A model generated the notes under the pieces. That model was not told the origin of the DNA and did not search any database. It saw nothing but the letters and a program-made list of their open reading frames with translations. A DNA stretch of 64,000 nucleotides, from the sequence record NC_048170.1. One strand, written 5' to 3'. Positions 1,905-31,768 of this stretch are shown here, piece by piece. Numbering within the stretch: the stretch's first letter is position 1; the number at the start of each line of letters is the position of its first letter. A program made the translations under genes and the position numbers. This DNA is from Escherichia phage vB_EcoM_Goslar.

Positions 1905-4814
1905 ATGAACGATATAAATAAAGGGCGCGTCGCCCTCGAACGTCAAATGAGCAATAATGACGTTGCGAAGGCACTCATGAACAAATTTGTCGCTCCTGCT
2001 CCGCAGTCACGTCTTTATAACACACGTGATGCGGAAGGAGCGAACGGTCGTTTCGGGTTAGTTGTTCCCGACCAAATGACGATGAACACGGTTACGCGTG
2101 CGACCGCGACAAACATCGAGGATAATAAAAACATCCTCGAGTTGTTCCCTGAACTTAAACGCGTGATGCAGATCTATGTTGCCGCGTTGACGAACCCTAA
2201 CGATCTTAAGACGGTCGAGATGTTTATCGACAGCGAAGATTTCCCCGGCAGAGTCGCAGAAATCGTTCAGCCGATGATCGATACCATCGACACGCATTTT
2301 AAGAATATCTATAAAATAAAGACGCTTATCCCTCGTATCATCGAAGACGTCTTCTTTATCAAGGGCAGTTATAACTTCGTTGTTCTGCCAGAAAGCACGC
2401 TCGACCGCGCCATTAATGGTAACGGTCAACTGAAACTTGAAGAATACGGTTTTAAAGACAACCATTTTGCAAGCTGGGGACTTTTAGGTAACGACAGTCG
2501 CAAACGCCACGAAAATCAATTACCTGCGACGGTTTCGATGGAAGATTATTTCTCAGGCGTTAATGAAACCATACCGTACGATCCTGTTGTTCGCATAGAC
2601 AGCATTAAATTTACCAATACCCTGCTTCGTGATAAGGACGGTAAATTCATTGAAGCGAAGATCGATATTCCGGATATGGTTACGGTTGTCGATAACCCGG
2701 ATATCCTCCGCATGCCTATTCTGCATCAACGTCGAGCAGCGACAGCAGTGCAGCGTGCGTTACGTGCAAACACGTTAGGAGGTAGTGGTTTGGTAACGCT
2801 GTCAGGTGATCCGACCCTAACCGCTAACCGACGTGAGCTGACGCAAGAGCAGGTTAACGAGATCTGGAATAAACTCAACATCCAGCGTCACACCAAGGTA
2901 TCTCCCGTTTACGCGTTGGCAACCCCAGATACACTCGATCGTCAAAGCGTCGGTCATCCTGGTGTGATGCACGTACCACCTGAGGCATTAGAACCTGTAC
3001 ATGCGCCGGGTGATCCGGAGAACCATATCGGATATTTGGTTCAGTTGGATGAGTTTGGTTATCCGGTGCGTTTGGTTGAAGATGCTGCGTATTACAAGCA
3101 GTTGGAAGGTCGGTTGTCGAAGATCACTGCAGATATCGCGGGCACGTCAAGCAACGGCATGGCGAGCGAGATGATTGGTGCAGCCAAGAACATGATCCAA
3201 GGTACGTCATGTAATCAGGTAGACATGTCGGCCTTCGTATCGTCGTACGAATCGCTGATGCAACGTTACATTGTCGAACGTATCGTTAACGGTTATCTTG
3301 GCAGTGCGGTGGAGATCGGTGCGACATCATCGTTTTATCTGTCGATGCTTGCCCGTAGCCTCGCTCACAAGCAGACCCGTGTTTTGTTTATTCCTCGAGA
3401 GATGGTGACTTACATCGCCTATGAATACAACAAATACGGTATCGGTCGTTCGCTGCTTGAAAGTACGAAGATGATCTCGTCGCAACGAGCCATGCTCATG
3501 GTTCAAGAACTGATGGCAAAAATCAAAAGTTCGTTGAACTATACGACGCTAAGCGTAATGCTTGAAGACACCGACAGAAACCCGGTCGATACCGTCGAAC
3601 AAGCACTGCATAGTTTCGCTCGTGTCTACCAGTCTGGTTTCCCGTTGGGTGAAACTAACCCGATGGATATCATCAACGCGTATGAACGAAGCTCGATTCG
3701 ATTGAAGGTTGAGGGGAATAACCCACGCTTCCCGAAATTGAATACAGACGTCAGTGTTGAGCAGCGTAACTATCAGTCTCCTGATAATGAGCTGATGGAT
3801 CGTTACCGTCGTGACCATTTCATGGGCTTGGGTGTGTCTCCGGAGATTATCGATACTTCCTACCAATCTGAATTCGCAGCTTCTGTGATTACAGCTAACG
3901 CGATGCAAGAGAAACAGTTCACGGTTTGTCGTGAGGTGATCACGAATGGATTATCGGACCACATCAAGAAATATACGGCATACAGTCCCGTGTTGTTGAC
4001 GTCGTTACGAAACACGGTTCGTGCGAACATGTCTAAGCTTTCCCAGGCACAATTGAAGCAGCTTTTTGGTAGCGATTTCGAAAACGGTGTTATCCGTAAC
4101 GTTAACGCCTATCAGGAGATTGACGACCAATCAGCAACAATGGATCTGGATTACACTAAACCAGAAGTCCAGGAAGTTATTGCCGATGCTTATGTGTCCA
4201 TGTTCTTAAACAGCCTGCGTGTGCGTTTACCGGATAGCAATGCTCGTCGCCTTGAAGATCAGGTACGTGAATATAATCAGTACAAGGAAGCGATTACTGC
4301 GCAACTTGATGATTATTTAACGCCTGATTACGTCATGGGTCTGGGTGGGGTTGATGAAACAACGCTGCAGATGATCCGCGCATGCATTATTGGTACCGCG
4401 ATGCGTACGTGGGCAAAAGAGAACAACTTCAATCAGGAGCTGGCTGATCTCTTCAGTCTTGACGATAAGAAGAATGCCGTGCAAGATTGGAAACGTATGT
4501 CCATGGAACATATTGAAGTCATGGGTAAATGCATGGGTGATTTTGCATTGTATATTCAGAATCTGACGAAGAAGATTGAAGAGAAGATGGGAGCTCAAGC
4601 ACAGGACGGTAGCGTTTCATCTGATGGTTCGTGGTCATCCGATTCAAGTAGCGATACCGGTTCTTCTGATGACTTCGGTGGCGGTGACGATTTCGGAGAT
4701 ACCGATTTCGATACCGAAACGATGGAGGAAACCTCAACAGAAGAAACAACCACATCTGAGGAAACGACTACCGACACAACGTCAGAAGACGACACTTCAG
4801 GTGGCGTTGTCTAA
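1905..4814 (+). CDS. large hypothetical virion-associated protein (969 aa) with Ser/Asp/Thr/Glu-rich C-terminal tail
   Basis: ORF track; ATG with AAGGAG 9 nt upstream; followed by hairpin 4846..4880; portal-like size but no motif support. Confidence 0.8.
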   Translation: MNDINKGRVALERQMSNNDVAKALMNKFVAPAPQSRLYNTRDAEGANGRFGLVVPDQMTMNTVTRATATNIEDNKNILELFPELKRVMQIYVAALTNPNDLKTVEMFIDSEDFPGRVAEIVQPMIDTIDTHFKNIYKIKTLIPRIIEDVFFIKGSYNFVVLPESTLDRAINGNGQLKLEEYGFKDNHFASWGLLGNDSRKRHENQLPATVSMEDYFSGVNETIPYDPVVRIDSIKFTNTLLRDKDGKFIEAKIDIPDMVTVVDNPDILRMPILHQRRAATAVQRALRANTLGGSGLVTLSGDPTLTANRRELTQEQVNEIWNKLNIQRHTKVSPVYALATPDTLDRQSVGHPGVMHVPPEALEPVHAPGDPENHIGYLVQLDEFGYPVRLVEDAAYYKQLEGRLSKITADIAGTSSNGMASEMIGAAKNMIQGTSCNQVDMSAFVSSYESLMQRYIVERIVNGYLGSAVEIGATSSFYLSMLARSLAHKQTRVLFIPREMVTYIAYEYNKYGIGRSLLESTKMISSQRAMLMVQELMAKIKSSLNYTTLSVMLEDTDRNPVDTVEQALHSFARVYQSGFPLGETNPMDIINAYERSSIRLKVEGNNPRFPKLNTDVSVEQRNYQSPDNELMDRYRRDHFMGLGVSPEIIDTSYQSEFAASVITANAMQEKQFTVCREVITNGLSDHIKKYTAYSPVLLTSLRNTVRANMSKLSQAQLKQLFGSDFENGVIRNVNAYQEIDDQSATMDLDYTKPEVQEVIADAYVSMFLNSLRVRLPDSNARRLEDQVREYNQYKEAITAQLDDYLTPDYVMGLGGVDETTLQMIRACIIGTAMRTWAKENNFNQELADLFSLDDKKNAVQDWKRMSMEHIEVMGKCMGDFALYIQNLTKKIEEKMGAQAQDGSVSSDGSWSSDSSSDTGSSDDFGGGDDFGDTDFDTETMEETSTEETTTSEETTTDTTSEDDTSGGVV

Positions 4815-4845
4815 ACGGATATAAAAAAAAATAACACATAGTTAA

Positions 4846-4880
4846 CCTTCTCCCCAACCCGATGAGGGAAGGGGAGAAGG
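4846..4880. terminator. GC-rich hairpin, bidirectional terminator candidate (ccttctcccc/ggggagaagg)
   Basis: Perfect 10-bp stem between convergent genes; A9 run at 4822..4830 gives a T-run after the hairpin on the minus strand. Confidence 0.6.
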
Positions 4881-4897
4881 GCTATGCGCTATTTAAT

Positions 4898-5173
4898 TTA
4901 TTTCGAGGTTAACCACGATTCAATTGTGGTGAGTTTGCTTCTCAGTACGCGCCAACTAGGGTGTGGTGGGATCACAGCGCCATTGTCGATTACGGTTAGC
5001 TGAACCTGGTACTTCTGTTGCATACGTGCTACCGTGTCGCTTATCGAGAGGAAAAGCTGGTAACGTTCATATGCCGTCAGTTCACTGTCCTGTTGAACTG
5101 CGTTGGCTGCTAACGTAATTTCGCGTAAGTCCTTTGCATCCACAGAGACGGTAATGAGTTTATATTGACTCAT
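4898..5173 (-). CDS. hypothetical protein (91 aa)
   Basis: ORF track; ATG with AAGGAAAC upstream. Confidence 0.55.
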   Translation of the reverse strand: MSQYKLITVSVDAKDLREITLAANAVQQDSELTAYERYQLFLSISDTVARMQQKYQVQLTVIDNGAVIPPHPSWRVLRSKLTTIESWLTSK

Positions 5174-5234: not shown

Positions 5235-7793
5235 TTACTGCTCTTCACGTTCCAGCAGATACTCGGAAGCGGTAATACCGTTTACCGTACGTACTGCTTT
5301 CAGACGAGTATCATCACTCAGAATCACGGTAACAGATTGCAGACCTTTTACTTTGGTTTCGAAGGTCTTGAACACCTGATCCAGCATACGAGCAATGCTT
5401 GGGTTGGTTGCAGCCGATGCGTGGGTGTAACCGCTTTGGTTCAGCTTCAGAATCTTGGCGTTGGTCGGTACGCGAACAACAACATGCGGACGCATCGCGA
5501 ATACGCTGTGATTGAACCAGTAAGCGTCGTTACTATCTTCGTCGGTAACGATGTCTGGATTAACACGCATATCCTCGACAGCCGCATCCGCCAAACGACG
5601 TTCGATTTCATCGGCGTCCAGAGAGCCATCTTTCTCCAGTTCTGCACGATACTCACTCATGGCAACCAGATGACGTTCACGATTCGCTGCGGATTTTTCG
5701 TGAGCGGCTTTCAGGTAGTCATGCATGTTGTACAGTTCTGCCATGGAAAGACGAATGTTCCACTGACCTTCGCCATCGCGATTGCAGTAGAGACACTTCA
5801 GCATGTTGACCCAGGTATAGTAGCAATTGGCGAATTCATCTTCAATGAACTTCTGGTCCATTTTAAGATCGTGAATCAGCCAACCGGACAGTTCTCCGAT
5901 ATCATCAACGAAGCTAGAGATGGTGGTTTCAGAGAAGTTCTTCGGTACGATACGTTTGATCAGCTTATTGACGTCTTTGGTCATGCTATCGTTCAGGAAA
6001 TGCCAGATACGCAGAGGAATGACATCTCGATACTGTTGCATGATCTGACGATAAGCTTTGATATCGTCGCTACGACCTTTATCAATAGACAACGCATCCA
6101 GGAATTCATGGATTGCATCCAGCTCTTTGTCGGTATAGGTTCCCAGATAGGAATTGACGGTGGCCAGGAATGCTAATGCGTCGTTTTGGTTGACGTCGGT
6201 GTTGGTCTGCTGAATGATCGCCACTGCAGCTTTAGTTTCAGCATCCTCAACGCTTGACGCTGCGATCGCGTCGGTGACGGTAAACAGTTTCATTTCGCGC
6301 TGCTCACCGACAACGATTGGCTCACGCTGAACCGGCTTGTTAAGACTAACGCGAACAACTTCTGCTTGCGCGATACGATCCAGTTTTGCCATTTCCTGCT
6401 CTGCCATACGACGAGCGGTTGGATCTGATTCAAGTTCGATGTATTCCACTTCTTCCTCCGTGAGGGATGTAATGTCAACAATGGTTTCATGAAGAATTCC
6501 GTTTTCGTCGATACGTGCTCGACGAGCGAAGTGCCTGAAGTCATACAACGTCGGCCAACGACTATTAGGTGCAAAGTCTTTGGCTTTCAGACGCATCTGC
6601 ATAAATTCTTCATGTTGAACAACACGACCGTAACGCTTAGCATCTTCGGTCGCATCAATTGGATTAACGGTCTTTGTTGCCGTAGCGGAACGAGCCGTAC
6701 GAACCGGTTCCGGTTTCACCTGCGCCGGTTCAGGTTGAACGGGTTTCTGCTGTCCAGCCTTAACATGCCATTCTGGCTCTTCGTACTGTTCAGCAAATTG
6801 CTCAGCCGCTGCAAAGATATCGTTGATACCACCAATATCTCCTTCAGGATTTGTCGAGTAAATCCGTGGTTGCGGTGCCTCGTAACGCGGCGCTGTAGCA
6901 GCAGGTGCCTCATCAACGATAGGATCATCATCACCGACATCATACAAACGGTTGAACGCACAATCCTTCGAATCAATGTACGATGGTGTTTGTGGTTGGA
7001 CAACCGTAGGCCGAGGTTGTGTGCCGTATCCTGGTGTTGTTGGAGCCATACCACGCATAACTGCTGGGTTAGGTTGGTATTGTGGTTGTGGGTAGGTTCC
7101 ACCATACATGGCGTACGCAGGCTGTTGTGGTTGACCATACCCGTTGCTAACCATCGCACTTGCTTGCGGCCCACGATAAGTCATCCCCATCTGCATCACC
7201 TGCTGCTTCAAACCACGTGACTTCTGCGCGATTTGCGCTAGGCTTCCGCTTTTATTCAGCTGCGTGTACTTATTCGCGGCTTCCGGGTTAATGCGTGATA
7301 ATTCAATCGCGCGATAATATTCCGGGTACTGATTCGGTTCAAAGAGCCACGTTACAAGATGATACAGCGCAACTGTACTCACGGCAGCAGAGACGATCTG
7401 GTCGTCGGACGCGTTCTGTGGCATCGGGTTGATGTAAGAGAACACGTTCCAACAACAGTCTTCAACAAGCGATTCCATCATCATATCGTTATTGGTATAA
7501 CGTGCGACGAACTCGGTTTGTATTTTGTCTTGCTGAGCGAAGTCTTTCAGGACATTAAAGATGGCTTGACGGATTTTGACGATCGTCGCTTCTTGGGTGA
7601 TGAAGTTATAGTTCTGCTGATATGAGGGTTGTTGGTATTGTGGTGGTTGATAGGCGTTATTCGGGTATGCGCCGTACGGCGATTGCTGATACTGTTGCTG
7701 ACGAACCTGTTCAGCCGCATAATTAATCGTGCTCGTATAAGGGTTTTCGCTATAGCCCATTTGTTGATACATGTTGTTACTGCCATTATACAT
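5235..7793 (-). CDS. hypothetical protein (852 aa) with Q/Y/P-rich low-complexity N-terminus
   Basis: ORF track; ATG with AAAGGA upstream; N-terminal about 60 aa dominated by Q, Y, P, N; second QPQY-rich stretch mid-protein. Confidence 0.8.
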   Translation of the reverse strand: MYNGSNNMYQQMGYSENPYTSTINYAAEQVRQQQYQQSPYGAYPNNAYQPPQYQQPSYQQNYNFITQEATIVKIRQAIFNVLKDFAQQDKIQTEFVARYTNNDMMMESLVEDCCWNVFSYINPMPQNASDDQIVSAAVSTVALYHLVTWLFEPNQYPEYYRAIELSRINPEAANKYTQLNKSGSLAQIAQKSRGLKQQVMQMGMTYRGPQASAMVSNGYGQPQQPAYAMYGGTYPQPQYQPNPAVMRGMAPTTPGYGTQPRPTVVQPQTPSYIDSKDCAFNRLYDVGDDDPIVDEAPAATAPRYEAPQPRIYSTNPEGDIGGINDIFAAAEQFAEQYEEPEWHVKAGQQKPVQPEPAQVKPEPVRTARSATATKTVNPIDATEDAKRYGRVVQHEEFMQMRLKAKDFAPNSRWPTLYDFRHFARRARIDENGILHETIVDITSLTEEEVEYIELESDPTARRMAEQEMAKLDRIAQAEVVRVSLNKPVQREPIVVGEQREMKLFTVTDAIAASSVEDAETKAAVAIIQQTNTDVNQNDALAFLATVNSYLGTYTDKELDAIHEFLDALSIDKGRSDDIKAYRQIMQQYRDVIPLRIWHFLNDSMTKDVNKLIKRIVPKNFSETTISSFVDDIGELSGWLIHDLKMDQKFIEDEFANCYYTWVNMLKCLYCNRDGEGQWNIRLSMAELYNMHDYLKAAHEKSAANRERHLVAMSEYRAELEKDGSLDADEIERRLADAAVEDMRVNPDIVTDEDSNDAYWFNHSVFAMRPHVVVRVPTNAKILKLNQSGYTHASAATNPSIARMLDQVFKTFETKVKGLQSVTVILSDDTRLKAVRTVNGITASEYLLEREEQ

Positions 7794-11438: not shown

Positions 11439-13661
11439 TCAGTTAGTCTGAACCGGCAGCTTGATGTTTTCAGTGTAGACCTTACGCAGGTTCACAACGT
11501 TAATCAGACCCAGCAGCGGGCAGTTGTTAACGAAGCGGCAGCGCGGCTGAACCATGGTTTCTTTAGAAACCTGACCGTTACGGGTAACCTGAGCAACAGA
11601 TACCAGTTCCGGTACATACAGGAACATACCGAAGGTCAGCGGATCCGGAGAACCCTGGATACCACGAGACAGGGTCACGAAGATCTTATCGCGCAGCATG
11701 ACGTTCGGGTTATCTACAACCACGAAGTTGAAGCTTACACCAACGGTACGGAAATCGCCATCGGTCTGCAGGAACTGCGGGATGTAGTTGTCAGTTGCTA
11801 CTACGCAACGCGGTTTCTCATCAGCGTTGGAAGACAGCAGCTGCAGAGCTGGCTGATAACCAGACTCGGAGTACATGCGGTATGCCATCTCACGAATCAC
11901 GTTCATGATCGCAGCAGACACTTCAGCACGACGTTCTGCAGTGGTGGTACCCTGAACAGATTTCTCCAGGTCCAGATTGATTTCTTCGAACCACGGACGG
12001 ATCAGGTAACGACCGAAACCTTCGATCTGGATGTCACCGAACTGACGGAAGCGAGAGGTCGCAACCGCTTTCAGTGCGTCTTTGTAGCTGAACAGTTTCT
12101 CAACCATCAGGTTGTCGAAACGTGCGTTAGCAGCTTGGATCAGAACGTCCAGGTCAGCAGCGTTTTCTTCCCAATCCAGCGGACGAGGAATGGAGAACGG
12201 AGCCAGCAGGCCGATTGCGTAACGTTCTTGCTTCATGTTGAAGTCAAGGTGCTTACCGCGCTCACGACGGTTGCTGTTGTTACGACGGATACGCAGTTCG
12301 TAACCAACCAGTTTGAAGCTCAGGTCTTCAGCCAGTTGTTTGAACTCTTCGCTCTTACGCGGTTGTTCGATGTTGTCCTGATCAACCAGGCGATACAGTT
12401 CAGCGTTAGCGCCGTTAACACGCAGACCCGCTTTCTCTACGTTGGAAGAACCGTAAACTTCGATCGCCAGCTGAGCAGCGGATTTCGCATCGATGATGTC
12501 CTGCAGCGCTTCGGCTTTCGCACCTTTAACGTCTTTGGTGTTCTCATCAACGAAGATGGAGTGGGTGTCGAACGCCAGGGTCATTTTGCGGAAGTCGCCT
12601 TCCAGGGATTTCTGGAAACCGTTGGTGATCAGACCAGATACGTCGAACGGTACGTAAGAGGTTTTGCTGTGCTTGGTAGATTTGATTTCCACCAGGATTT
12701 TGGTCAGCGTGATCTGAGCATCCAGCGCGTCGGTGTTGTCGCTGTAACCGTTAGCCAGAATGCTGTCGTCTTCAGCGATACCGATCATGTCGATCAGTTT
12801 ATCAACAGCCAGGTAAGACGTTTTATAAGTTACGCCTTTAATTTCGATGTCGCGCGGAGCAACGATAGCTTTGTCAACGAAGTACTGCGCGTTAGCATCG
12901 TCAGCACGATAGATCGGATGCAGATCGGTCACGTCGTTGGACAGAACGTCGTTATACATGAACGCATCCAGCAGCGGACGACGTACCCAATCAGCCGGAG
13001 TACCGTCAGCGTTACGACGCAGGTGGTTGAACACCAGCGGACGACGGAAAGATACGTCGTAACCGATCTGGTTCGGAGCCAGAACGATGGTGTTGTACAG
13101 TTCGTTACCCATGCGGCTCAGACGAGAAGCCTTCACGTTGAACACGACGGAGTACGGCATCATGTCACGCAGTTCTTTCTGGTCGTAGGACAGCTGAACC
13201 AGTTCTTCAGATTCGCAACCGCAGGAATCAGCAGCCATCATGACGAAGTTAGAGCTGTCAACTTCACGACCTGACGGAGTGGTGCTGATGTTCATGGAAC
13301 GTGCTTGTTTAGCATATTCTACCGGGTTGCCATGAGCCAGCATGATCAGTGCTGCTGCACGAGCCTGCTGTGCGTTCATGGTGAACAGCTGTTCTTCAAT
13401 ACGCTGCTTCTCTTCCGGAGTGGTGGTTTCGAAGCCCAGCAAGGTCAGAACCGGTTCTTCGGCTTTACGGATGTCGCTGCTGAAGCTCTTAACATCCATT
13501 TCGTTAACCAGTTTGTCCATGGATTTGAAATCAACCTTAGAAGCAGATTCCATAGACAGGAAGGTGTTCTCCAGACCTTTGTCTGCTGGTTTGCTACCAT
13601 TAGCGGTCAGGAACTGGCGAGTGGCCGCGACCTGTTGGCTAAGAAGGGTTTTATCATTCAT
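11439..13661 (-). CDS. major virion structural protein, putative major capsid protein (740 aa); tail sheath is the alternative
   Basis: ORF track; ATG with AAGGA 8 nt upstream; strongly optimised codon usage (CTG, CGT, GGT, AAC, TTC, GAA) unlike neighbours; size matches phiKZ-type capsid proteins (recalled, not searched); 149-nt leader. Confidence 0.6.
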   Translation of the reverse strand: MNDKTLLSQQVAATRQFLTANGSKPADKGLENTFLSMESASKVDFKSMDKLVNEMDVKSFSSDIRKAEEPVLTLLGFETTTPEEKQRIEEQLFTMNAQQARAAALIMLAHGNPVEYAKQARSMNISTTPSGREVDSSNFVMMAADSCGCESEELVQLSYDQKELRDMMPYSVVFNVKASRLSRMGNELYNTIVLAPNQIGYDVSFRRPLVFNHLRRNADGTPADWVRRPLLDAFMYNDVLSNDVTDLHPIYRADDANAQYFVDKAIVAPRDIEIKGVTYKTSYLAVDKLIDMIGIAEDDSILANGYSDNTDALDAQITLTKILVEIKSTKHSKTSYVPFDVSGLITNGFQKSLEGDFRKMTLAFDTHSIFVDENTKDVKGAKAEALQDIIDAKSAAQLAIEVYGSSNVEKAGLRVNGANAELYRLVDQDNIEQPRKSEEFKQLAEDLSFKLVGYELRIRRNNSNRRERGKHLDFNMKQERYAIGLLAPFSIPRPLDWEENAADLDVLIQAANARFDNLMVEKLFSYKDALKAVATSRFRQFGDIQIEGFGRYLIRPWFEEINLDLEKSVQGTTTAERRAEVSAAIMNVIREMAYRMYSESGYQPALQLLSSNADEKPRCVVATDNYIPQFLQTDGDFRTVGVSFNFVVVDNPNVMLRDKIFVTLSRGIQGSPDPLTFGMFLYVPELVSVAQVTRNGQVSKETMVQPRCRFVNNCPLLGLINVVNLRKVYTENIKLPVQTN

Positions 13662-23116: not shown

Positions 23117-26100
23117 TTACTTGTAGGCACCGCAATGTGCTTTGATGAGGAAAAGCACCGCTTGCATCGGTTTATTGAACTGTTGCCATAACGTCAATGC
23201 AGGATGGAACAACCAATCTTCCAGGCCAAGAACAATACCGTAGTTAACGACATTATTAACATCGTTCTCAACGTTGAGTTCGCTGTCCAGGAATTTATCG
23301 ATTGAACGCAGGGTCTGCATGGCGTTGTCAGCAATAAGCCAAGCTTCATGTGCTTCACGAGCCGCACGCAGCACTGCCTCCAGTTCGCTGATAGTAGCTA
23401 CCGGTAATTCCTCACTGGTGAGGTCGTCAGAAACCGTAAACTGGCGATTGATACCGGTGTAGATCCACTGCATCAGTTTCGCTGCTTCCTCGTTCGGGTT
23501 GTTGCGCGTTGTCGCATAAGTCGCGCTCACCTTCACGATGTGCGTTTCACCAAGATACGCTTTGGACCCAACACCTTTACGATCGCTGTCTTTCCACGGT
23601 TGTACGGTAGCGACCATGAGCTTATCCCATTTCTGAATAGGAATACGCTTCAGACCAACAACCGATCCGGCGGATGTTTCGGACTGGTTGCTCTTCCGCA
23701 CTTCGCTGAGCTCACGATCGATAGCAACGATTAATTCACGCGTCATGTTACCGAGCATTTTGATTTCACCCAACGCAGCGATGAGCTTCTTCACATCGGT
23801 AACAGGTTCACCACCGATGGTAAGATGACGGATGAAACGTTTCAGAATAATCCGTTCCGCTGCTGGATTACCGCGACGCGCTTTGGCCAGCGCTTGCTGT
23901 GTTTCGGCGAACAGCTTATCCCATGGAGCCGTAGCGGCGGTATAGTAACGGTGGTTGGTTTCAATCCAGTTACCGATACGGTTGACCGCGCTCTTAACGG
24001 TATCCATGAATCCTTCCATCGCAATTTCGGTAGCTTCCACGTTACCCTGGAAGTTATCAGGACCGATCTCGCGTGCCGCTACCAGAATACCTTCCACCGC
24101 ACTCACCGCATGACGACCGATAGCCAGATTTCGCTGCGCTTCTTCAGCACGCTCAACGAATTCCACTACCGCAGGATCGTCGACGATTTCCGCCTCGGCA
24201 ACAGCACGCGTACCCGCATCACCTTCCAGCGTTTCGATGGTGACAACCGGATCGTTTTCACCGGCAACATCCTGGTACTCTTCCTGTTTGAGATCGCCGT
24301 TATCAGCCGCTGCGACAGCGGTGAGTATACGGACGGTAACATCACCGAGTTCTTTTGCAGTGAATCCGTAGACGGTGCATGCTGTTGTCGCAAAGTTCAT
24401 CAGTGTGCGTGTGCGTTTAACGATGTAGCCAACATCATAATCGCTACCGCTCTTATCGATGTCACGGATTAACCGTTCAGCTGTCTCCTGAAGTTGTGTA
24501 GCTGCTTTCAGAAGGTCTTCGTCAAACAGTTTCGTTGACGCATCGATCAGCATATCAACGCTAACGTTAGACGGTACAGCATCATCCTGCTGTTTCATGG
24601 CGCTAAGTTCGTCACGGAACTTACGAATACCGTCTAAAGCGGCGTCAGCGGTATGTCCGAACGCAGCCACGCCTGACATTGTTGTTGCCGTCAGCATGTC
24701 TGAATCTGCGTTTGGACTTTCGCCTTCTTTAAGATTCTTCAACTGGTCGAAGAACTTACGAGATGCTTCAGCGATACGTTTACTGTCTTTGACCGCGTTT
24801 ACGATCTTATCGACAGATTTAGCGTCGTTCGCGAGCAGAGTATCCAGTTTATTCCACTCAACGTCAACCTTCTTGGTATCGCTTGGTGGTGGAAGCAGTT
24901 TCATCACTGGCGTTGTACGTTGTTCTTTGGTGAGCTTATCGGCCTTCTCATCGATTTTCTTTTTACTAACACCGAAGAGTTTTCTTAGGCGTGCCACGAT
25001 TGCTTTTAAGAACTTCGCGACCGCTTCGTAAACCGATTTCAGAATCTGTTTAAAGCGACCTGGCTGCTTTTCCCCGTCTTCCAGATTGAGATCGCTATTC
25101 AGTGCGACATCAAGCTGTTTGTACGATTCCATGATGTATTCGTCTTTGATTTCAGGACGAATCTCGAAGCTTTCCATCGGACCTTCAGCCGGACGGAATT
25201 CCATTTTCAGTTCGCCTTGCAGGGTAGGGTCGATAATAGCGATAGCTTCACCCTGACCATCAGCGTTAAAGCGTTCAGCGTAACGAGTACGGCGAACAAT
25301 AACACTCTTATCCCCATCAAGACGACGTACCACCATGGTGCCAGGAATGTACGGTTGTTCTGTTTCAATGACGGTTACATCTGCTTCACCTTCGCCGAGA
25401 ATAACCGATGCGCGCTGTTCAACAACAGGAACATCTAATACGCCACGGGCTTCCAGCTCTTGACGAATTTCGAACGACTCTTGTTTCAGATCTTCATCTT
25501 CTTCGTTTTCGTCGTCTTCATCATCGTCACCTTTGGTGTTTTCATTACCCTCGGTGGTTGTGGTGTTTGTAGCAGCAGCGTCGGCGTCTGTGTTGGTAGG
25601 TTCTTCGGACGCAGGTTCGGTGGTGCCGTCCTCGGCAGGCGTTTCGTCAGCGTTATCGACGTCAACATCACCTTGCAGCTCCGTTTCTTGAGCAACTGCT
25701 TCGGCTTTCTGCTCGCCGGTATTACCATCATTAGCGTCGACAACAGGTTGTTCGTCAGCGACGGTATCTTCAACCTTTTCTACTTTCTCCACGACACGTT
25801 TAATCACGGTGACTTTGATGGGTTCTTCCGTTGTTTTGGTTTCTGGCGTCACCTCGGCTGCCGCAGCCGCTGTTTCAGCAACAGGTTCTGCTTTTTCCGG
25901 TTCGACGACATTACCTTTAACACCTTCGGTGGTTTCTGCAGGTTGCGCTGCCTGTTCGATTTGCGCCGGATTGGTTGGATCGATGGCGTTAGCCGCATCC
26001 TGAATCTTGTTCTTCAGGTTGTCGCGGTCAGCGTTAACGGTCGGGTCGTTGGTCACTTTCGGTGCCGGTGTTTCGGTCGGCGCGTTTGCCGGATACGGGT

Positions 26101-26494
26101 TCTTCGGCTCCTCGCCAGGTGCGGTCGGTACCGCGATCAGAACGAACGGCTGAACGTCGTTACCGTCTTCCATGGTTACGCCGCCGTTGCTTGGCGTGAA
26201 ACGGATTCGCAAACTACCATCGATAGGACGGGTCACAATAACAGCACGTACGACATCCTCGCCGTTTTCATCTGTGCTACGAATCACGCGAACAGCGTCA
26301 TCAACGGTAGCCCCTTCCTCGAGCGTATCTGATTCGATCGTCGCTTCGATGCTGTCTGGCCGTGCCGCTGTAGGTAATGCGATCACTTGCTCTTCTTTAT
26401 CAGTAGAAAGCGTTGCTTTGACTTCGATAGGTGTATCGCCGCTTTCCAGGTTAAGATGCGACTTACGCATCAGATCAGCTAACGATTTTTTCAT
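23117..26494 (-). CDS. large virion protein (1125 aa) with acidic low-complexity region and internal ESF-helix motif
   Basis: ORF track; ATG with AAGAGGAA upstream; E/D/T-rich segment; MESFEIRP...ESYKQLD...KFLKAIV resembles the paralog-family motif. Confidence 0.85.
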   Translation of the reverse strand: MKKSLADLMRKSHLNLESGDTPIEVKATLSTDKEEQVIALPTAARPDSIEATIESDTLEEGATVDDAVRVIRSTDENGEDVVRAVIVTRPIDGSLRIRFTPSNGGVTMEDGNDVQPFVLIAVPTAPGEEPKNPYPANAPTETPAPKVTNDPTVNADRDNLKNKIQDAANAIDPTNPAQIEQAAQPAETTEGVKGNVVEPEKAEPVAETAAAAAEVTPETKTTEEPIKVTVIKRVVEKVEKVEDTVADEQPVVDANDGNTGEQKAEAVAQETELQGDVDVDNADETPAEDGTTEPASEEPTNTDADAAATNTTTTEGNENTKGDDDEDDENEEDEDLKQESFEIRQELEARGVLDVPVVEQRASVILGEGEADVTVIETEQPYIPGTMVVRRLDGDKSVIVRRTRYAERFNADGQGEAIAIIDPTLQGELKMEFRPAEGPMESFEIRPEIKDEYIMESYKQLDVALNSDLNLEDGEKQPGRFKQILKSVYEAVAKFLKAIVARLRKLFGVSKKKIDEKADKLTKEQRTTPVMKLLPPPSDTKKVDVEWNKLDTLLANDAKSVDKIVNAVKDSKRIAEASRKFFDQLKNLKEGESPNADSDMLTATTMSGVAAFGHTADAALDGIRKFRDELSAMKQQDDAVPSNVSVDMLIDASTKLFDEDLLKAATQLQETAERLIRDIDKSGSDYDVGYIVKRTRTLMNFATTACTVYGFTAKELGDVTVRILTAVAAADNGDLKQEEYQDVAGENDPVVTIETLEGDAGTRAVAEAEIVDDPAVVEFVERAEEAQRNLAIGRHAVSAVEGILVAAREIGPDNFQGNVEATEIAMEGFMDTVKSAVNRIGNWIETNHRYYTAATAPWDKLFAETQQALAKARRGNPAAERIILKRFIRHLTIGGEPVTDVKKLIAALGEIKMLGNMTRELIVAIDRELSEVRKSNQSETSAGSVVGLKRIPIQKWDKLMVATVQPWKDSDRKGVGSKAYLGETHIVKVSATYATTRNNPNEEAAKLMQWIYTGINRQFTVSDDLTSEELPVATISELEAVLRAAREAHEAWLIADNAMQTLRSIDKFLDSELNVENDVNNVVNYGIVLGLEDWLFHPALTLWQQFNKPMQAVLFLIKAHCGAYK

Positions 26495-26509: not shown

Positions 26510-27616
26510 TTAAAAGTAATATTTCAGCGCCTCGCGAGAGACATCAAGCATAGCCGCTGTTGAATTCGTAAAGAACTCGGCATAGCCCACAAGCGGCACC
26601 TTGATCCACGCGGTATACGCTGTAAGGTATCGAGAAAGGGCTACCATAGCATCATCAGAAGCAGTAGTAACTGACAACTGACCTTGTTGACGATAAACGT
26701 CGTTAAGTTTTGCTTGTAGATTCCCTGCGATTTCGAGTAACTCGTTGGCGTACTTTTTACGATGGTAACTAACCAGCAAATCAACACCCGTATTTACAGA
26801 CTCGAGTAGAAGACCAACTTGTTCTAATGTTGGCATTGTAACCACCATATCCCGTTCAACGGATGGGACATCCTGGACTTCAAACCGTGCGGATTGAATG
26901 GCGAGGGACTGTTGAATTGATCCAGAACCTGAAGCGGTAACTTGATCGAGTCGTAGCATACGGTTGCCCAGTAACGTCACGTTGACGAGTTTCGATTCGT
27001 TCAGCGTACTGTAGACTTTATGCAATAACGTATACGCATCACGGTTAATCACATCGATTAATGCGGTATCCGTCTGTTTTAAGATAATGTCGAGTGCTCT
27101 ATCTAACGTATTAGCGAACTGCTTAAAATCATCACGGAACGACGAAGACAAGAGATATTCAGCGATCGCTAAATTCTGTTTGTATAACGTATTCCCGGTT
27201 GTGAAATCGAACCCAAAACTGTTCCCATACCGTAGGTGCGGAGCCAACGTCGACGAAGCTTCGAAGCTTTGCGCGATAGGTTTACGACCAACGGCTTTTG
27301 TGTAGTGACGGCGGATGTTGCTGAGTTCGAGCTGTAGTGCGCGACTACGATCGATAAACCGTGCGATAAACGCGGTAATGTTCCGCAACGTTGTCCAGAT
27401 TGCATCGATGATAGCTTTGATGATCTTCATCGCAAGTTGATCGTACGATTCCATTGTGAGGAGATCAGCACTTTCCGTGGTATAACTGGTTGATAGCATA
27501 CCACCCGCTTGCTGATAAATAAGCTGGTGAATTTGTCGTTGCGTTGCTGTCTCTGGCACAGGTAATGTTTTTAACAAGCTTAACGCTTGAATCTGTCCAT
27601 CATTGGTCTGCAGCAT
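26510..27616 (-). CDS. head/internal protein paralog (family member E)
   Basis: ORF track frame; in-frame ATG at 27616 with GAGGAA upstream, overlapping upstream stop by 17 nt; motif ESYDQLAMKIIKAIIDAIW. Confidence 0.75.
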   Translation of the reverse strand: MLQTNDGQIQALSLLKTLPVPETATQRQIHQLIYQQAGGMLSTSYTTESADLLTMESYDQLAMKIIKAIIDAIWTTLRNITAFIARFIDRSRALQLELSNIRRHYTKAVGRKPIAQSFEASSTLAPHLRYGNSFGFDFTTGNTLYKQNLAIAEYLLSSSFRDDFKQFANTLDRALDIILKQTDTALIDVINRDAYTLLHKVYSTLNESKLVNVTLLGNRMLRLDQVTASGSGSIQQSLAIQSARFEVQDVPSVERDMVVTMPTLEQVGLLLESVNTGVDLLVSYHRKKYANELLEIAGNLQAKLNDVYRQQGQLSVTTASDDAMVALSRYLTAYTAWIKVPLVGYAEFFTNSTAAMLDVSREALKYYF

Positions 27617-28901
27617 TGCTGGTTTCCTCAAGTTCGAGATGCGCGTCAAGATAATCATTAAGACCATCGATGACGTCGCAGACAGTTAACAGGAATCGGG
27701 CAAAAGCAACCGCCTGGAAGCCGACGACGTTACGCGCGATACCCACGCGTTGAACGATAGCGGATGCTGCGGTATCGTTATTGCCCATCTGTTGTAGCAA
27801 ACGTTCATACGGTTGAATCCATTCGTCCTGGTCGGCAAGGCTTGCTTCAAGACAACGTTTAAATTCCAACTGTCGTAGCGTAGACCATAACGTACTTAAT
27901 GCGTTGATGATCGCGTTGGTTCCGTCGATAACATCGTTTAACGGTAAGAAACGGAATCCGTCTTTTGCTGATTGGAAAGGTGCGGCTTCCCACACAACGC
28001 TGAACTGCGTTCCTGTTGCGTCTTCGATGTTGTGTAATTTAAGATAGGAAGCACCAACAGGAACGTCAACGACCAGATCGTCTGTTCCGGTAGGTGTTAA
28101 CGGCTTCTCGCATAACGCCTCGTTGATGGCCTCGAGAATATTCTCCCAACAGGCTTCGTTTTCCGCAGCGATACCTTCTTTGTTATCCGCTGATGGTGCT
28201 TTTAGTAGCTGCATTAATAACGGATCAAGTTGACGGTGCCATGCTGCGAGGATTCCTGTGTTCGTTACGATGTTTTCTGCGGTTTGTCGTAAATCAGCAA
28301 TACTGCTTACCGCACCGCCTTTCGGATGGAGATATCGCCAGTTGTAGGGAAAGTTCTCCCAGAATGCGTTATCTTCATCGACGTCGTATTCGGAAATAGT
28401 TTTCAACGCAGCCGCTTTCTTTAATAACGGCTTCACCTGACGAACGAATCGACGATAACAGCGATTGCAGATATCGATCGCATAGCGGTATAATTCGTTC
28501 ATGTAAAGCCATAATGCACGGGTTGCTTCTTTTGCTGTCTTGTCAAAACTTTCCATGTTCAGACTCATCCCGCTGGAAGTTTCCTCTTCCAGACCCTCGA
28601 TGATGTGGTTTGGATCCATCCCCATCCCGGCTGCTGCGGTCGATGCGATATGTTTGATGGTGTTGATATCGCGTTCCTCGACTTCAGCCATGTTTGGGAC
28701 AATATCCAGCCTGAGTTTATTTAATGTTTGAAGGTGTTGTTCACCTTCTTTCATCGCCGTGTTTGTTTCGTCGATTGAGTGAAACTGATTCTCAATATTA
28801 CTGGCATCGAGAATGTTGCCAGCGATACCGAACGATTCTACAGGTTCATCATCAATCCCTTGAAACAACGATGTCATGGGTTGTTGTAACACGTTTTCCA
28901 T
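27600..28901 (-). CDS. head/internal protein paralog (family member C, 433 aa)
   Basis: ORF track; ATG with AGGAG 7 nt upstream; acidic N-terminal region; HIASTAAAGMGM and ESF...ALWLYM motifs shared with neighbours. Confidence 0.8.
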   Translation of the reverse strand: MENVLQQPMTSLFQGIDDEPVESFGIAGNILDASNIENQFHSIDETNTAMKEGEQHLQTLNKLRLDIVPNMAEVEERDINTIKHIASTAAAGMGMDPNHIIEGLEEETSSGMSLNMESFDKTAKEATRALWLYMNELYRYAIDICNRCYRRFVRQVKPLLKKAAALKTISEYDVDEDNAFWENFPYNWRYLHPKGGAVSSIADLRQTAENIVTNTGILAAWHRQLDPLLMQLLKAPSADNKEGIAAENEACWENILEAINEALCEKPLTPTGTDDLVVDVPVGASYLKLHNIEDATGTQFSVVWEAAPFQSAKDGFRFLPLNDVIDGTNAIINALSTLWSTLRQLEFKRCLEASLADQDEWIQPYERLLQQMGNNDTAASAIVQRVGIARNVVGFQAVAFARFLLTVCDVIDGLNDYLDAHLELEETSNAADQ

Positions 28902-29008
28902 TTGGGACTCCTACGTAGGAAAATCTTGGCGGGTGATCATGTCCGCCATTTACCTTCTGAACCGTTGATTCAGAAGTCAAAAGATAACCGGATACCAACG
29001 CCATAAAA

Positions 29009-29040
29009 CCTTCCTCCAACCCGTAAGGGAAGGAGGAAGG
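29009..29040. terminator. GC-rich hairpin ccttcctcc-aa-ccc-GTAA-ggg-aa-ggaggaagg
   Basis: Perfect stems; 3' of stop of gene 29051..30340. Confidence 0.6.
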
Positions 29041-29050
29041 GATATAGTGG

Positions 29051-30340
29051 TTATGCTTTTTCGGTTACAGCATCGAAGTATTTCGCTGCAGCAAATACGG
29101 CATCCGCATATTGACGGTTAGCAACACGGAGGATCTTAGCTGCTAATACCGCACTCAAGAGCGCCATTTCAGAAATGGCGCTTATATAAGGGCGAACGGT
29201 TTCACGATCTGCTTCCGGTAGATTGTCGAGCATACCGTCCCATTTGGTTTTAATTTTCATACCGTTCAGTTTAGCGGTACGTTCGACAGTACTCGTTAAA
29301 CTTTCCGTCTGGTTAAAATACGCAGGGTCAACAATACGAAACGCGTTAAGATACGAAGTCAGTGCGGCTTTCAATTCGTCGTCGTTATTGAAAATGTTCG
29401 CGTTTTCGATACTACCAGTCGCGGTTTCTTCCACTTCGATCTGAATATTCTTCACGAGCGCGCAGGCCTTAATGGTATCTTTCTCAGCCATAAGAGCGTC
29501 AAGACCTTTAACAACATATCGTTTCCCACCGCTTTCTGGTATTTTGAGTCCTTTTAACGCGGGCTTGATGGCGTAAATATAGTCGTCCAGAATATCGGCA
29601 AGTGTCGTCAAATCGGTTAGTTTATTAACTTTCTTGTTAATGTCGTCGGTTTGGAGTAGTAAAAAAGAGGATGCTTGTGTGGATGCCGCTAACTGCTCAA
29701 TATGTTTACGGACCTCCAACGCGTTAACTGTTTTTGCGTTAGGGAACATGCTAATCATATTCCCGGTCGGTTTATTTAGTTGTTTGATGTGACGCTCGCC
29801 TTTATTTACAGCGGTTGCAACATCGGTAATTTTTTTATACGCTACCGCAAGGTTTTTGAAAAGCAGCTGAATCAGTTTACATAACTGTTCAGCCATGTTC
29901 GCAATGATTACCCAAACTGCGTATAGCGCTTGTGCTGCGCGTTCTTTAAAGCCTTCCAGTACGATAGCCTGCCCTTCCACCAAACGATCGTCAGCTTGGA
30001 ACATGTCTTCATCAGACATCCCCAGGTTAGCTGCTGACGTCGAAGCAATCTGGCGGATAAGGGCGATGTCGCTCGCACGTGCTTCAGGGATCGTAGGTGC
30101 GATCATGTACGCGGTATCTTCCAGCGTTGCTGAGGTACGCACCGCAATTTCAGCCAGTTCGCTGGATTCGTCGATCGTCTCGTCGGTGCGTCGAATCACC
30201 AACTCAACTTCGTCCTCTTCAATTTCTGCGTTAGGATCGTTCTGCTCCGCTGGAATTGCCGCAAGAAGATCTTCGGCGCTGAGCAGTGCGAGTTCGAATG
30301 CGTTTTTATTGACGTTATCAAAAAGAGAAATGCGGGCCAT
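29051..30340 (-). CDS. head/internal protein paralog (family member B, 429 aa)
   Basis: ORF track; ATG with AAGGAA upstream; TIPEARASDIALIRQIASTSAANLGM and VLEGFKE motifs aligned with gene 30350..31666. Confidence 0.8.
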   Translation of the reverse strand: MARISLFDNVNKNAFELALLSAEDLLAAIPAEQNDPNAEIEEDEVELVIRRTDETIDESSELAEIAVRTSATLEDTAYMIAPTIPEARASDIALIRQIASTSAANLGMSDEDMFQADDRLVEGQAIVLEGFKERAAQALYAVWVIIANMAEQLCKLIQLLFKNLAVAYKKITDVATAVNKGERHIKQLNKPTGNMISMFPNAKTVNALEVRKHIEQLAASTQASSFLLLQTDDINKKVNKLTDLTTLADILDDYIYAIKPALKGLKIPESGGKRYVVKGLDALMAEKDTIKACALVKNIQIEVEETATGSIENANIFNNDDELKAALTSYLNAFRIVDPAYFNQTESLTSTVERTAKLNGMKIKTKWDGMLDNLPEADRETVRPYISAISEMALLSAVLAAKILRVANRQYADAVFAAAKYFDAVTEKA

Positions 30341-30349
30341 GTTAGTTCC

Positions 30350-31666
30350 TTAACCTTTGGTATAAGCGTTAACGAGAGTGTTGATAAATGAAGTCAGTGC
30401 GCGAAGATACTGGTAAGCGAATTGGTTTTCAATACGGTTCTCTTTACCGCAAAGCAGAATCGCACGCTTAACGAGTTTAGGATAGATCTCGACATACGGT
30501 TGGTAGCTTGCATCAAAATTCTGCTCGTTGAAGCGTTTCATGGTGATTTCCTGGATACGCTCCATGGTGCGAATTTTATTGCGAGAGAATATCTCAGAGA
30601 AAGCACGTCCGCGTTTTGTTACCATCAACAAATCTTTCGCGAACGTCAGTTGTCGAACGCTACGTAATTCGTCAGGTGTTGGCAGGACATACGTTTCTGG
30701 ATCGTTATCCCATTCAACATCTTCAACGATAATATCCAAGTCGAGGTAACGTTTAACAGCATCGATGATGTTGTCTTTTGACGCATCGAATTCTTTCAAG
30801 AAGACTGCGCCGTTGATGTAGCGGATGCGTTTCCCAGAAACTGTTGGGGTGATAACATCAGCACCTTCCACGGAACCGCGATTTTCCAGTGTCGATTTGA
30901 CAGCGTGCAAGAAAGACAGATAATCAACAGGAAGTTTTTCAACCTTATCTAAATGGAAGTCGATGATGTTTAATCCTAACCCATCAATAACTGAATAGCC
31001 GTCCGATTTAAGGAACATCTGATTGAAGGTATCGATGTTGCTTTTCAGCGTGTCTACGCCACCAACGCTGTTACGGTTAGGGAAAAGTGTCCGCCACTCC
31101 GCTTTAAACGCAACCTCTTTATTTTCCTCGTATTTGCCTTTAGGCATTTGTTCGAGGTCTGCAACGGCTTTCTGAAAATTGCGCGTCTCGTCGTAAACAA
31201 GACGGGTAAGCTTCTCGAAGGCTGCTGCCAAGGTCAGGGCAATATCAACAATGATATCCCAGATCTTTTTCATGGCTTTTACAACGGTGTCCTTAAACCC
31301 CTCAACAACCAAAGCTTCTCCAACCTCAACACGATCGGTTGGCGTCAGCAATGCTTCGGAGGGTAGACCCAGAGCAATCGACGCGGATTCTTGAACGTTA
31401 CGAACCAACGCAACATCACTGTAGTTAGCCGATTCGATAGTCGGAGCAACATCAAAACTGATTTCCCGTAATGCAGCAACAGCAGGGAAAGCACGATCAA
31501 GCGCATCTTCATGTTCGTCGATTGCCGCCAAACGTAATTCGACGCCATCGGCATCGATGACTTCAGCGGCAGGCTCCACAGCAAGCGCCTCAGCAACAAT
31601 AGGATCTTTTTCAAACGCCTCAAGGCTGATATCGCCTTGGGTCGCAAATAGCGGTATGTGTACCAT
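30350..31666 (-). CDS. head/internal protein paralog (family member A, about 438 aa)
   Basis: ORF track frame; track start is TTG, ATG at 31666 has GGAG 8 nt upstream; TIESANYSDVALVRNVQESASIALGL and VVEGFKD motifs. Confidence 0.8.
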   Translation of the reverse strand: MVHIPLFATQGDISLEAFEKDPIVAEALAVEPAAEVIDADGVELRLAAIDEHEDALDRAFPAVAALREISFDVAPTIESANYSDVALVRNVQESASIALGLPSEALLTPTDRVEVGEALVVEGFKDTVVKAMKKIWDIIVDIALTLAAAFEKLTRLVYDETRNFQKAVADLEQMPKGKYEENKEVAFKAEWRTLFPNRNSVGGVDTLKSNIDTFNQMFLKSDGYSVIDGLGLNIIDFHLDKVEKLPVDYLSFLHAVKSTLENRGSVEGADVITPTVSGKRIRYINGAVFLKEFDASKDNIIDAVKRYLDLDIIVEDVEWDNDPETYVLPTPDELRSVRQLTFAKDLLMVTKRGRAFSEIFSRNKIRTMERIQEITMKRFNEQNFDASYQPYVEIYPKLVKRAILLCGKENRIENQFAYQYLRALTSFINTLVNAYTKG

Positions 31667-31714
31667 GTGTTGTCTCCAGTAATGATTCAAAAGATAAACC
31701 TGAGCGGCATAGAA

Positions 31715-31746
31715 CCCTCTCCCAACCCGTGAGGGAAGGGAGAGGG
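31715..31746. terminator. GC-rich hairpin ccctctccc-aa-ccc-GTGA-ggg-aa-gggagaggg
   Basis: Perfect stems with GNRA loop; 3' of stop of gene 31769..33091; followed on minus strand by ggttctatgccg. Confidence 0.6.
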
Positions 31747-31768
31747 AATATGTCAGTTTATTAACTGA

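Follow-up and report, generated by a model that had tools for sequence, protein, structure and literature searches.

What does a long tail of almost purely acidic and hydroxylated residues do at the end of a large phage protein? Within a stretch of 64,000 nucleotides from Escherichia phage vB_EcoM_Goslar (sequence record NC_048170.1; hereafter the window), an open reading frame (ORF) on the plus strand at 1905–4814 encodes 969 amino acids plus a stop codon and ends in ...QDGSVSSDGSWSSDSSSDTGSSDDFGGGDDFGDTDFDTETMEETSTEETTTSEETTTDTTSEDDTSGGVV*. An initial reading of the letters alone (the original prediction) had described the last 70 residues or so as a disordered tail on a large structural protein, and had suggested that it mimics DNA, contacts packaged DNA or a basic partner, or is phosphorylated or glycosylated. 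Here we report that the protein is the portal, that the charge density of the tail is conserved throughout the portal family and that a short motif recurs among the tails at a conserved position; we tentatively propose that twelve such tails form a polyanionic brush at the portal mouth. The tail is a conserved but fairly ordinary feature of a known, structurally solved protein, and its function is putative.

The tailed protein is the portal

The product of the ORF matches PHROG 3004 (E = 4.8e-161, over residues 13–963) and is 100% identical over residues 1–969 to chain J of Protein Data Bank (PDB) entry 11ED, the 'Portal Protein gp36' of the Escherichia coli chimallivirus Goslar; the large structural protein of the original prediction can be named specifically as the portal. 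A second entry (PDB 36ZA) holds 12 chains covering residues 5–921, and the phiKZ portal gp129 (PDB 9XPE) matches at E = 2e-76. On these matches we assign the protein to the phiKZ-type portals with a T4 gp20 fold (PHROG 3004). It is gp36 (HOV27_gp036) of Goslar (bioRxiv 10.64898/2026.04.21.720040). Megablast of the gene and of 20 kb of the window gave no match among the INPHARED phages, a collection that appears to lack the source phage. The neighbouring genes fit this identity: the major capsid protein (PF25620) lies at 11439–13661 (gp41 by position) and an internal head protein (PF12699) at 31769–33091.

The portal fold, the C12 symmetry and the domain ranges used here are those of published structures. 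The Goslar portal is a C12 ring with a wing (residues 5–519 and 643–777), a stem and clip (520–642) and a crown (778–923), the last of which crosses the top of the ring and packs against three neighbouring protomers; the channel is unusually wide, approximately 74 Å at the top and 60 Å at the bottom (10.64898/2026.04.21.720040). The model starts at residue 5 (10.64898/2026.04.21.720040). As the portal gp81 of phage SPN3US reportedly loses an N-terminal propeptide of 161–254 residues, N-terminal portal processing does not seem to be a trait that these giant phages share.

The tail is real

The acidic, hydroxylated end exists as described, its quoted sequence matching the ORF exactly. The last Lys, Arg or His is K894, and the stretch free of all three comprises residues 895–969 (positions 4587–4811, followed by the stop codon at 4812–4814); the start at 4590 given in the original prediction is the codon of G896. 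Residues 900–969 consist of 14 Asp, 8 Glu, 15 Ser, 15 Thr, 9 Gly, 3 Phe, 3 Val and one each of Trp, Met and Gln, that is, 22 acidic residues, 30 Ser/Thr and 9 Gly, and all 22 acidic residues of the stretch 895–969 fall within this part. With residue frequencies taken from the rest of the protein, the probability of 75 residues without Lys or Arg is 1.8e-4, that of at least 22 Asp/Glu is 1.5e-4 and that of at least 30 Ser/Thr is 2e-9. With a net charge of -18, the C-terminal 50 residues are the most acidic among the 50 genes called in the window, the runners-up reaching -8.

An assembly artefact, which would have undone the observation, is ruled out: Tandem Repeats Finder found no DNA tandem repeat, the G+C content of the tail (0.50) is normal beside that of the gene (0.47), the deposited PDB sequence carries the identical tail, and so do the members listed of a cluster of 404 near-identical proteins, which come from independent assemblies. 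The lack of a DNA repeat also led us to reject slippage expansion as the origin of the tail. ORFs in other frames at 4576–4824 (plus strand), 4519–4755 and 4595–4795 (both minus strand) were rejected as by-products of the low-complexity coding sequence.

Order and disorder divide the tail into three parts

The tail follows the helical part of the crown (residues 778–894; 4236–4586, plus strand), the last helix of which ends in a Lys-rich segment (KKIEEK) and spans residues 862–902 in an AlphaFold2 (AF2) prediction. The first part of the tail is a linker rich in Ser, Gly and Asp (residues 895–919, MGAQAQDGSVSSDGSWSSDSSSDTG; 4587–4661, plus strand), free of Lys and Arg and with a net charge of -4, which belongs to the ordered crown seen in the virion, as the two cryo-electron microscopy (cryo-EM) entries reach residues 921 (36ZA) and 923 (11ED). 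It is followed by a motif block (residues 920–935, SSDDFGGGDDFGDTDF, or S920-SDDFGGGDDFGDTDF-935; 4662–4709, plus strand; net -6) with two copies of D-D-F-G and one D-T-D-F, and both cryo-EM models end just ahead of its F924. The remainder is a distal tail (residues 936–969, DTETMEETSTEETTTSEETTTDTTSEDDTSGGVV; 4710–4811, plus strand) that is Thr/Glu-rich, hypervariable, net -12 and unmodelled in cryo-EM. The tail is thus tripartite, with an ordered linker, a motif block at the boundary between order and disorder, and a hypervariable acidic distal part.

Disorder, which had been proposed for the last 70 residues as a whole, holds for a little under two-thirds of them. Residues 924–969 (4674–4811, plus strand) appear in neither cryo-EM entry; these 46 residues include 16 Asp/Glu and no Lys or Arg, and carry approximately -16 per chain and -192 per dodecamer. 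The first 24 or so residues are ordered, because the crown domain spans residues 778–923. For the tail as a whole the charge is approximately -22 per chain, so that the twelve chains together carry between -190 (residues 924–969) and -260 (whole tail). In a charge–hydropathy plot, the stretch 895–969 falls clearly on the disordered side (net charge per residue -0.29), as does the distal tail (-0.35). AF2 gave its lowest confidence to residues 898–969 (predicted local distance difference test (pLDDT) 25–35, and 25–30 in the distal part) and no secondary structure; this model, which was built from an alignment of eight sequences, is poor overall (mean pLDDT 46.6) and lends weak support to disorder.

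Proteomics of Goslar used trypsin, and the tail has no Lys or Arg over 75 residues, so tryptic data are blind to it: Table S4 lists gp36 at protein level only (22.8% coverage, 20 peptides) and shows no peptide from the tail. Searching the PDB with phiKZ gp129 returned no truncated chain that would reveal the modelled range of that portal.

Charge density is conserved across the portal family

A tblastn search with the crown and tail gave one weak match, as the tail is masked by the low-complexity filter and obscured by divergence, and we therefore analysed the tails by anchoring them on the last crown helix. All eight homologues from a word-indexed search, down to 25% identity, have acidic tails poor in Lys and Arg and of very different lengths. 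An exhaustive HMMER search found 1,211 homologues in a representative set; the best 150 representatives, each from its own cluster at 50% identity, and the hits found before were aligned as a set of 157 sequences with H869, F880 and I884 as anchors. The tail was defined as everything past the last alignable crown helix, anchored at I884 of Goslar.

The post-crown segment is net negative in all 157 portals. Its charge is -10 or lower in 154 of them and zero or above in none (median -24), and its length ranges from 17 to 265 residues (median 94); the acidic tail, for which a check in homologues had been suggested, is thus a family trait. Asp and Glu make up 0.31 of the tails versus 0.13 of the protein bodies, whereas Lys and Arg are depleted (0.06 versus 0.11). 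Charge density is narrowly distributed, at -0.26 per residue (interquartile range (IQR) -0.31 to -0.21), and the acidity of the Goslar tail is typical of the family. Constant charge density in segments of variable length indicates selection on a bulk physical property and not on sequence.

The hydroxylated character behaves differently. In Ser/Thr content the Goslar tail stands at the 98th percentile of a family with a median of 16%, and many tails are instead rich in Glu, Pro and Gly; Ser/Thr richness is accordingly a trait of the Goslar lineage and no requirement of the family, and the phosphorylation or glycosylation once read from it loses its footing.

Close relatives show the same contrast at shorter range. 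In the cluster of proteins with at least 90% identity, 3.9% of the columns in the body are variable or gapped, compared with 16% in the linker, 12.5% in the motif block and 36% in the distal tail, which is hypervariable with insertions and deletions even at this distance. A clade at 68% identity keeps the start of the linker (KMGAxAxDxxVxxDGS), a DD(L/F)G(x)GD(L/I) element (DDLGLGDL or DDFGMGDL) and a Thr/Glu-rich end, and otherwise differs, with small insertions and deletions. We read this pattern as the signature of selection on composition and a short motif, not on sequence. Acidic tails are also present in the portals of Xanthomonas phage LucasX and Erwinia phage RAY.

The portal of Salmonella phage SA002 (1030–4533; 1,167 residues) has an acidic tail of approximately 300 residues with a net charge of approximately -80, near the end of which lies a Lys-rich patch (…KPKGRSRKSKRTQKKEAKKKKEADK) followed by ASDDGLDFGNV. 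A basic island of this kind may mean that the otherwise acidic tail has another function here, or an extra one.

A short motif sits at a fixed position

Although the tails are otherwise unalignable, a short element recurs among them. The pattern [DE][DE]-hydrophobic-G occurs in 64 of the 157 tails, where shuffling within each tail predicts 16 (z about 20), and D[FLM]GG in 44, where it predicts 4 (z about 26); across the motif forms, enrichment over shuffles spans z = 14–26. The first copy lies a median of 38 residues past the I884 anchor (IQR 29–44), and tails with the motif usually have one to four copies, rarely seven. By position frequency, the consensus is G-G-G-D-D-(F/L/M)-G-G-D-D, and within it Asp is strongly preferred over Glu, whereas the two are equally common in the tails overall. 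The strict motif is absent in about a third of the family, Erwinia phage RAY included. The very ends of the tails also depart from chance, with a hydrophobic residue in the last three positions of 73 tails (49 ± 6 expected) and an aromatic one in 26 (14 expected); the tip is GGVV in Goslar, GDIV in its relatives and DDTQP in the 68%-identity clade.

Residues 893–969 have no Pfam match at E ≤ 0.01. We rejected RTX calcium-binding repeats (GGxGxDxUx, HemolysinCabind), given the lack of a Pfam match and a consensus, G-G-G-D-D-hydrophobic-G-G-D-D, that is off the nonapeptide register. A repeat domain like that of the FG nucleoporins does not fit either, as the Goslar tail has only two FG dipeptides and strongly acidic spacers. 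In the literature searched we found no earlier description of the family-wide quantification, the tripartite architecture or the motif, and these three are new; the portal and its structure were already known, as were disordered acidic C-terminal tails, those of other portals included.

The internal head protein and most of its gene neighbours are acidic

The PF12699 internal head protein and the products of most of its neighbouring genes have isoelectric points (pI) of 4.5–4.9, with one at 8.5, and the propeptide of the capsid protein has a net charge of -7. No basic partner was seen among the genes of the window, which covers a quarter of the genome, and the basic partner that had been suggested for the tail therefore found no candidate. 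Because the internal head protein and most neighbours are acidic, repulsion and not binding is the default electrostatics.

The PF12699 gene belongs to a run of similar-sized genes on the minus strand (26510–33091; 385–440 residues each), among which a Pfam match to PF12699 is confirmed for 31769–33091 only; 27600–28901, in the same run, has no Pfam match. Genes adjacent to the PF12699 protein share its fold (10.64898/2026.04.21.720040). Four of the five genes in the run encode acidic proteins (pI 4.5–4.9; N-terminal 50 residues net -9), the exception being 26510–27667 (pI 8.5), and the abundant capsid cargo is thus itself mostly polyanionic. Next to this run, the minus-strand gene at 23117–26494 encodes 1,125 residues (pI 4.6, net -77) without a Pfam match, and an internal segment of 46 residues near residue 288 (net -18) is as acidic as the portal tail.

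A putative brush at the portal mouth

Our tentative reading, which we consider plausible but short of probable, is that the tails form a putative polyanionic entropic brush at the portal mouth, with an Asp-Asp-hydrophobic-Gly latch at its base. As the C-terminus follows the crown, the tail lies on the capsid-interior face of the 12-subunit ring, beside the DNA. The linker is part of the crown, which straps across three neighbouring crown domains, and beyond it twelve flexible chains, with roughly -190 per portal, would form the brush around the inner mouth of the channel; that residues 924–969 are not resolved under C12 averaging supports such flexibility. The brush could repel the internal head proteins, most of which are acidic, as well as packaged DNA, and this repulsion would leave the channel mouth unobstructed and of low friction, both for DNA entering during packaging and for DNA and proteins leaving at infection. 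The Asp-Asp-hydrophobic-Gly element may latch the brush, at its base, onto the crown, or it may be a short docking motif. Of the two contacts proposed originally, that with packaged DNA is right about place, in that the tail is next to DNA inside the capsid; attraction between the two is unlikely at approximately -0.3 charges per residue.

Several points weigh against the brush. A pure brush needs no conserved motif, so some of the tail probably has a more specific task. The portals of T7, lambda and P22 lack an acidic tail, so a brush is not generally required. The structure papers on Goslar and phiKZ are silent on the matter: the words 'acidic' and 'C-terminal tail' do not occur in the text of the Goslar paper, which does not discuss the tail (10.64898/2026.04.21.720040), and the phiKZ structural atlas makes no mention of a portal tail. 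Residue 923 may point either to the channel lumen or to the capsid periphery, the search for a basic partner covered a quarter of the genome, and low confidence for the tail in a poor AF2 model is weak evidence.

Alternative explanations

The main rival is partner docking, in which the G-G-D-D-(F/L/M)-G-G element, and perhaps the distal part, would recruit a specific protein to the crown, such as an internal or ejection protein that must exit ahead of the rest, a scaffold or core component that nucleates the prohead on the portal, or a factor that free portals meet at the phage-nucleus shell ahead of capsid assembly; we regard this as possible, if on balance doubtful. It would account for a motif whose position is fixed in otherwise unalignable tails and for the excess of hydrophobic tips, which recalls those of SSB-type proteins, and it has precedents. 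The T7 portal crown, with its last 42 residues invisible, has been proposed to order on binding of core proteins, SPP1 gp6 is a strong binder of gp7, which it directs to the inside of the capsid, and the PhiPA3 portal alone localizes to the nuclear shell before capsid assembly and binds ChmB. Neither the portal nor the internal vertex complexes are present in the 'empty capsids' of Goslar (10.64898/2026.04.21.720040). However, no candidate partner came out of the window, where the internal head protein, most of its neighbours and the capsid-protein propeptide are acidic; ChmB is absent from Goslar; about a third of the family does without the strict motif; and the motif is not resolved in the C12 maps. 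A bolder proposal, and a decidedly unlikely one, is that twelve tails with two or three Asp-Phe-Gly elements each serve as a gate or gasket where the 60–74 Å channel opens into the capsid. Such a gate would be a functional analogue of the FG brush of the nuclear pore, a selective barrier of disordered chains or a device for ordering, and would set the order in which cargo leaves or seal the annulus around the DNA in a channel that passes DNA and probably a large injected load of chimallivirus virion proteins.

It is unlikely that the tail matters for assembly only and has no role once the virion is mature, whether as an 'entropic bristle' that keeps free subunits soluble or prevents their aggregation, or as a propeptide that the prohead protease removes. 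Protease-type S/A/G-x-E sites do occur at 944–946 (STE) and 951–953 (SEE), but such matches are expected by chance in a sequence rich in Ser, Thr and Glu. Portal and capsid proteins of related giant phages are cleaved after Glu, whereas the reported processing of the SPN3US portal is N-terminal only, Goslar gp36 is modelled from residue 5 and so is not processed like that portal, and T4 gp20 is not processed. A trimmed tail would also be invisible in cryo-EM and, lacking Lys and Arg past K894, escape tryptic mass spectrometry. The first 157 residues of the Goslar capsid protein have no density (10.64898/2026.04.21.720040). Nevertheless, charge density conserved throughout the family in tails of up to 265 residues exceeds the needs of a solubility tag. 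That conservation also makes functionless drift improbable, in which a C-terminus in free space, tolerating anything that is not sticky, became acidic without specific selection. Drift would fit the extreme variability of sequence and length, the insertions and deletions, the lack of a Pfam domain and the several model portals without such tails, but hardly a net negative charge in every one of 157 homologues within a narrow range of density, the depletion of Lys and Arg, or a motif kept at a fixed distance among proteins of only 25–30% identity. We consider it very improbable that the tail mimics DNA by occupying a DNA-binding surface, be it that of the terminase or a host nuclease, or as a plug of the channel before packaging. 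Its negative charge density is high, the 60–74 Å channel would admit flexible chains and, in T7 gp2.5 and SSB, it is an acidic tail that competes with DNA; yet the C-terminus lies inside the capsid whereas the terminase docks on the external clip, portal channel-lining surfaces are generally electronegative, and a segment both predicted and observed to be flexible has no rigid, DNA-like array of charges. A structured mimic of the Ocr or ArdA type, which the original prediction might suggest, is not supported, as no confident fold or secondary structure is predicted past residue 902 and the segment is of low complexity and hypervariable. Just as hard to credit is a putative modification substrate, in which phosphorylation or O-glycosylation of Ser and Thr would tune charge or recognition: 30 of 70 residues are Ser or Thr, but this richness is not conserved, and no link to a kinase or glycosyltransferase was found.

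Features flanking the portal gene

Beyond the stop codon, a hairpin at 4829–4894 (core stem 4846–4855/4871–4880) lies between the portal gene and a convergent ORF of 91 residues (4898–5173, minus strand). Its predicted RNA fold has a free energy of -34.3 kcal/mol (z = -7.55 versus shuffles), and the core stem is G+C-rich and of 10 base pairs, with a loop of more than 8 nucleotides, hence missed by a pattern scan. It is a likely candidate for a bidirectional terminator marking the true 3′ end of the portal gene.

The gene adjoining that of the portal (5235–7793, minus strand; gp38 by position) encodes 852 residues, with low-complexity regions rich in Gln, Tyr, Pro and Asn at residues ~1–65 (…QQQYQQSPYGAYPNNAYQPPQYQQPSYQQNYNF) and ~215–290. 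It has no PHROG match and only a sub-threshold Pfam match, and its composition looks prion-like or condensate-prone.

Implications

The portal is the single gateway for genome packaging and ejection, and in chimalliviruses it probably also passes a large load of injected virion proteins, including a virion RNA polymerase. The C-terminal 46–75 residues of this gateway are unmodelled and undiscussed in the two recent structural atlases of Goslar and phiKZ. A constant charge density, a positioned G-G-D-D-(F/L/M)-G-G motif and a hypervariable distal part, found across more than 150 diverse portals, translate into concrete and cheap mutants, with clearing of the channel mouth, nucleation of prohead or internal-protein assembly, and ordering of ejection as candidate roles. 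Should the tail be dispensable, portal fusions or tags could be attached there safely, within the capsid.

Comparison with known portals and tails

Closest to Goslar is the homologous gp129 of phiKZ, which has an acidic post-crown tail free of Lys and Arg (last 50 residues net -21) with the elements GDFGSD and DDLGSGG, similar to the Goslar block. The phiKZ-type portals nevertheless differ from that of Goslar, with only ~25–30% identity and unalignable tails, and the distal part of gp129 is rich in Glu, Ala and Leu where that of Goslar is rich in Thr and Ser. Outside the family, the closest structural relative of the chimallivirus portals is T4 gp20 (gene 20, 1208–2782), which has a short acidic end with an aromatic tip (...EEESKEARFQDPDQEQEDF; ...QDPDQEQEDF; last 50 residues net -9). 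This end differs in being approximately 20–30 residues long, in containing Lys and Arg, in being probably partly helical and in lacking a G-G-D-D-hydrophobic-G motif.

SPP1 gp6 (gene 6, 2334–3845) resembles Goslar without any relation at the level of sequence: its post-crown tail is acidic and free of Lys and Arg (...LLDDEGGDDDLEEDDPNAG...; last 50 residues net -17) and contains D-D-x-G-G-D-D-D-L (DDEGGDDDL), which resembles the chimallivirus motif. The traced chain ends at residue 470 of 503 in the 2.7 Å connector structure, leaving the last 33 residues untraced. The SPP1 tail is much shorter, and is not Ser/Thr-rich. The crown tail of T7 gp8 and the barrel of P22 gp1 (PMC4992974) are likewise C-terminal extensions into the capsid that are thought to engage core or ejection proteins, the T7 crown perhaps becoming ordered on contact with a core protein. 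Neither is acidic (last 50 residues net -1 and -2, respectively), and P22 has a long helical barrel in place of a disordered polyanion; with lambda gpB included, the last 50 residues of these portals are near neutral, at -1 to -3.

Among proteins other than portals, SSB and T7 gp2.5 have disordered, Asp/Glu-rich C-termini as in the Goslar tail, and many portal tails of the Goslar family share with them a hydrophobic or aromatic end. Those tails belong to DNA-binding OB-fold proteins and bind replisome partners or their own DNA cleft, whereas the portal is not a DNA-binding OB protein and its tip is GGVV or GDIV. In the FG-repeat nucleoporins, disordered chains with Phe-Gly are anchored in a ring around a transport channel; the Goslar tails are also ring-anchored disordered chains with Phe-Gly, but have only two or three FG dipeptides per chain, set among highly acidic spacers. 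From these sequences, acidic disordered C-termini appear to be a recurring but not universal feature of portals, of which the phiKZ-type family has an expanded version, and their presence with hydrophobic punctuation in SPP1, T4 and chimallivirus portals suggests that such ends recur in unrelated lineages.

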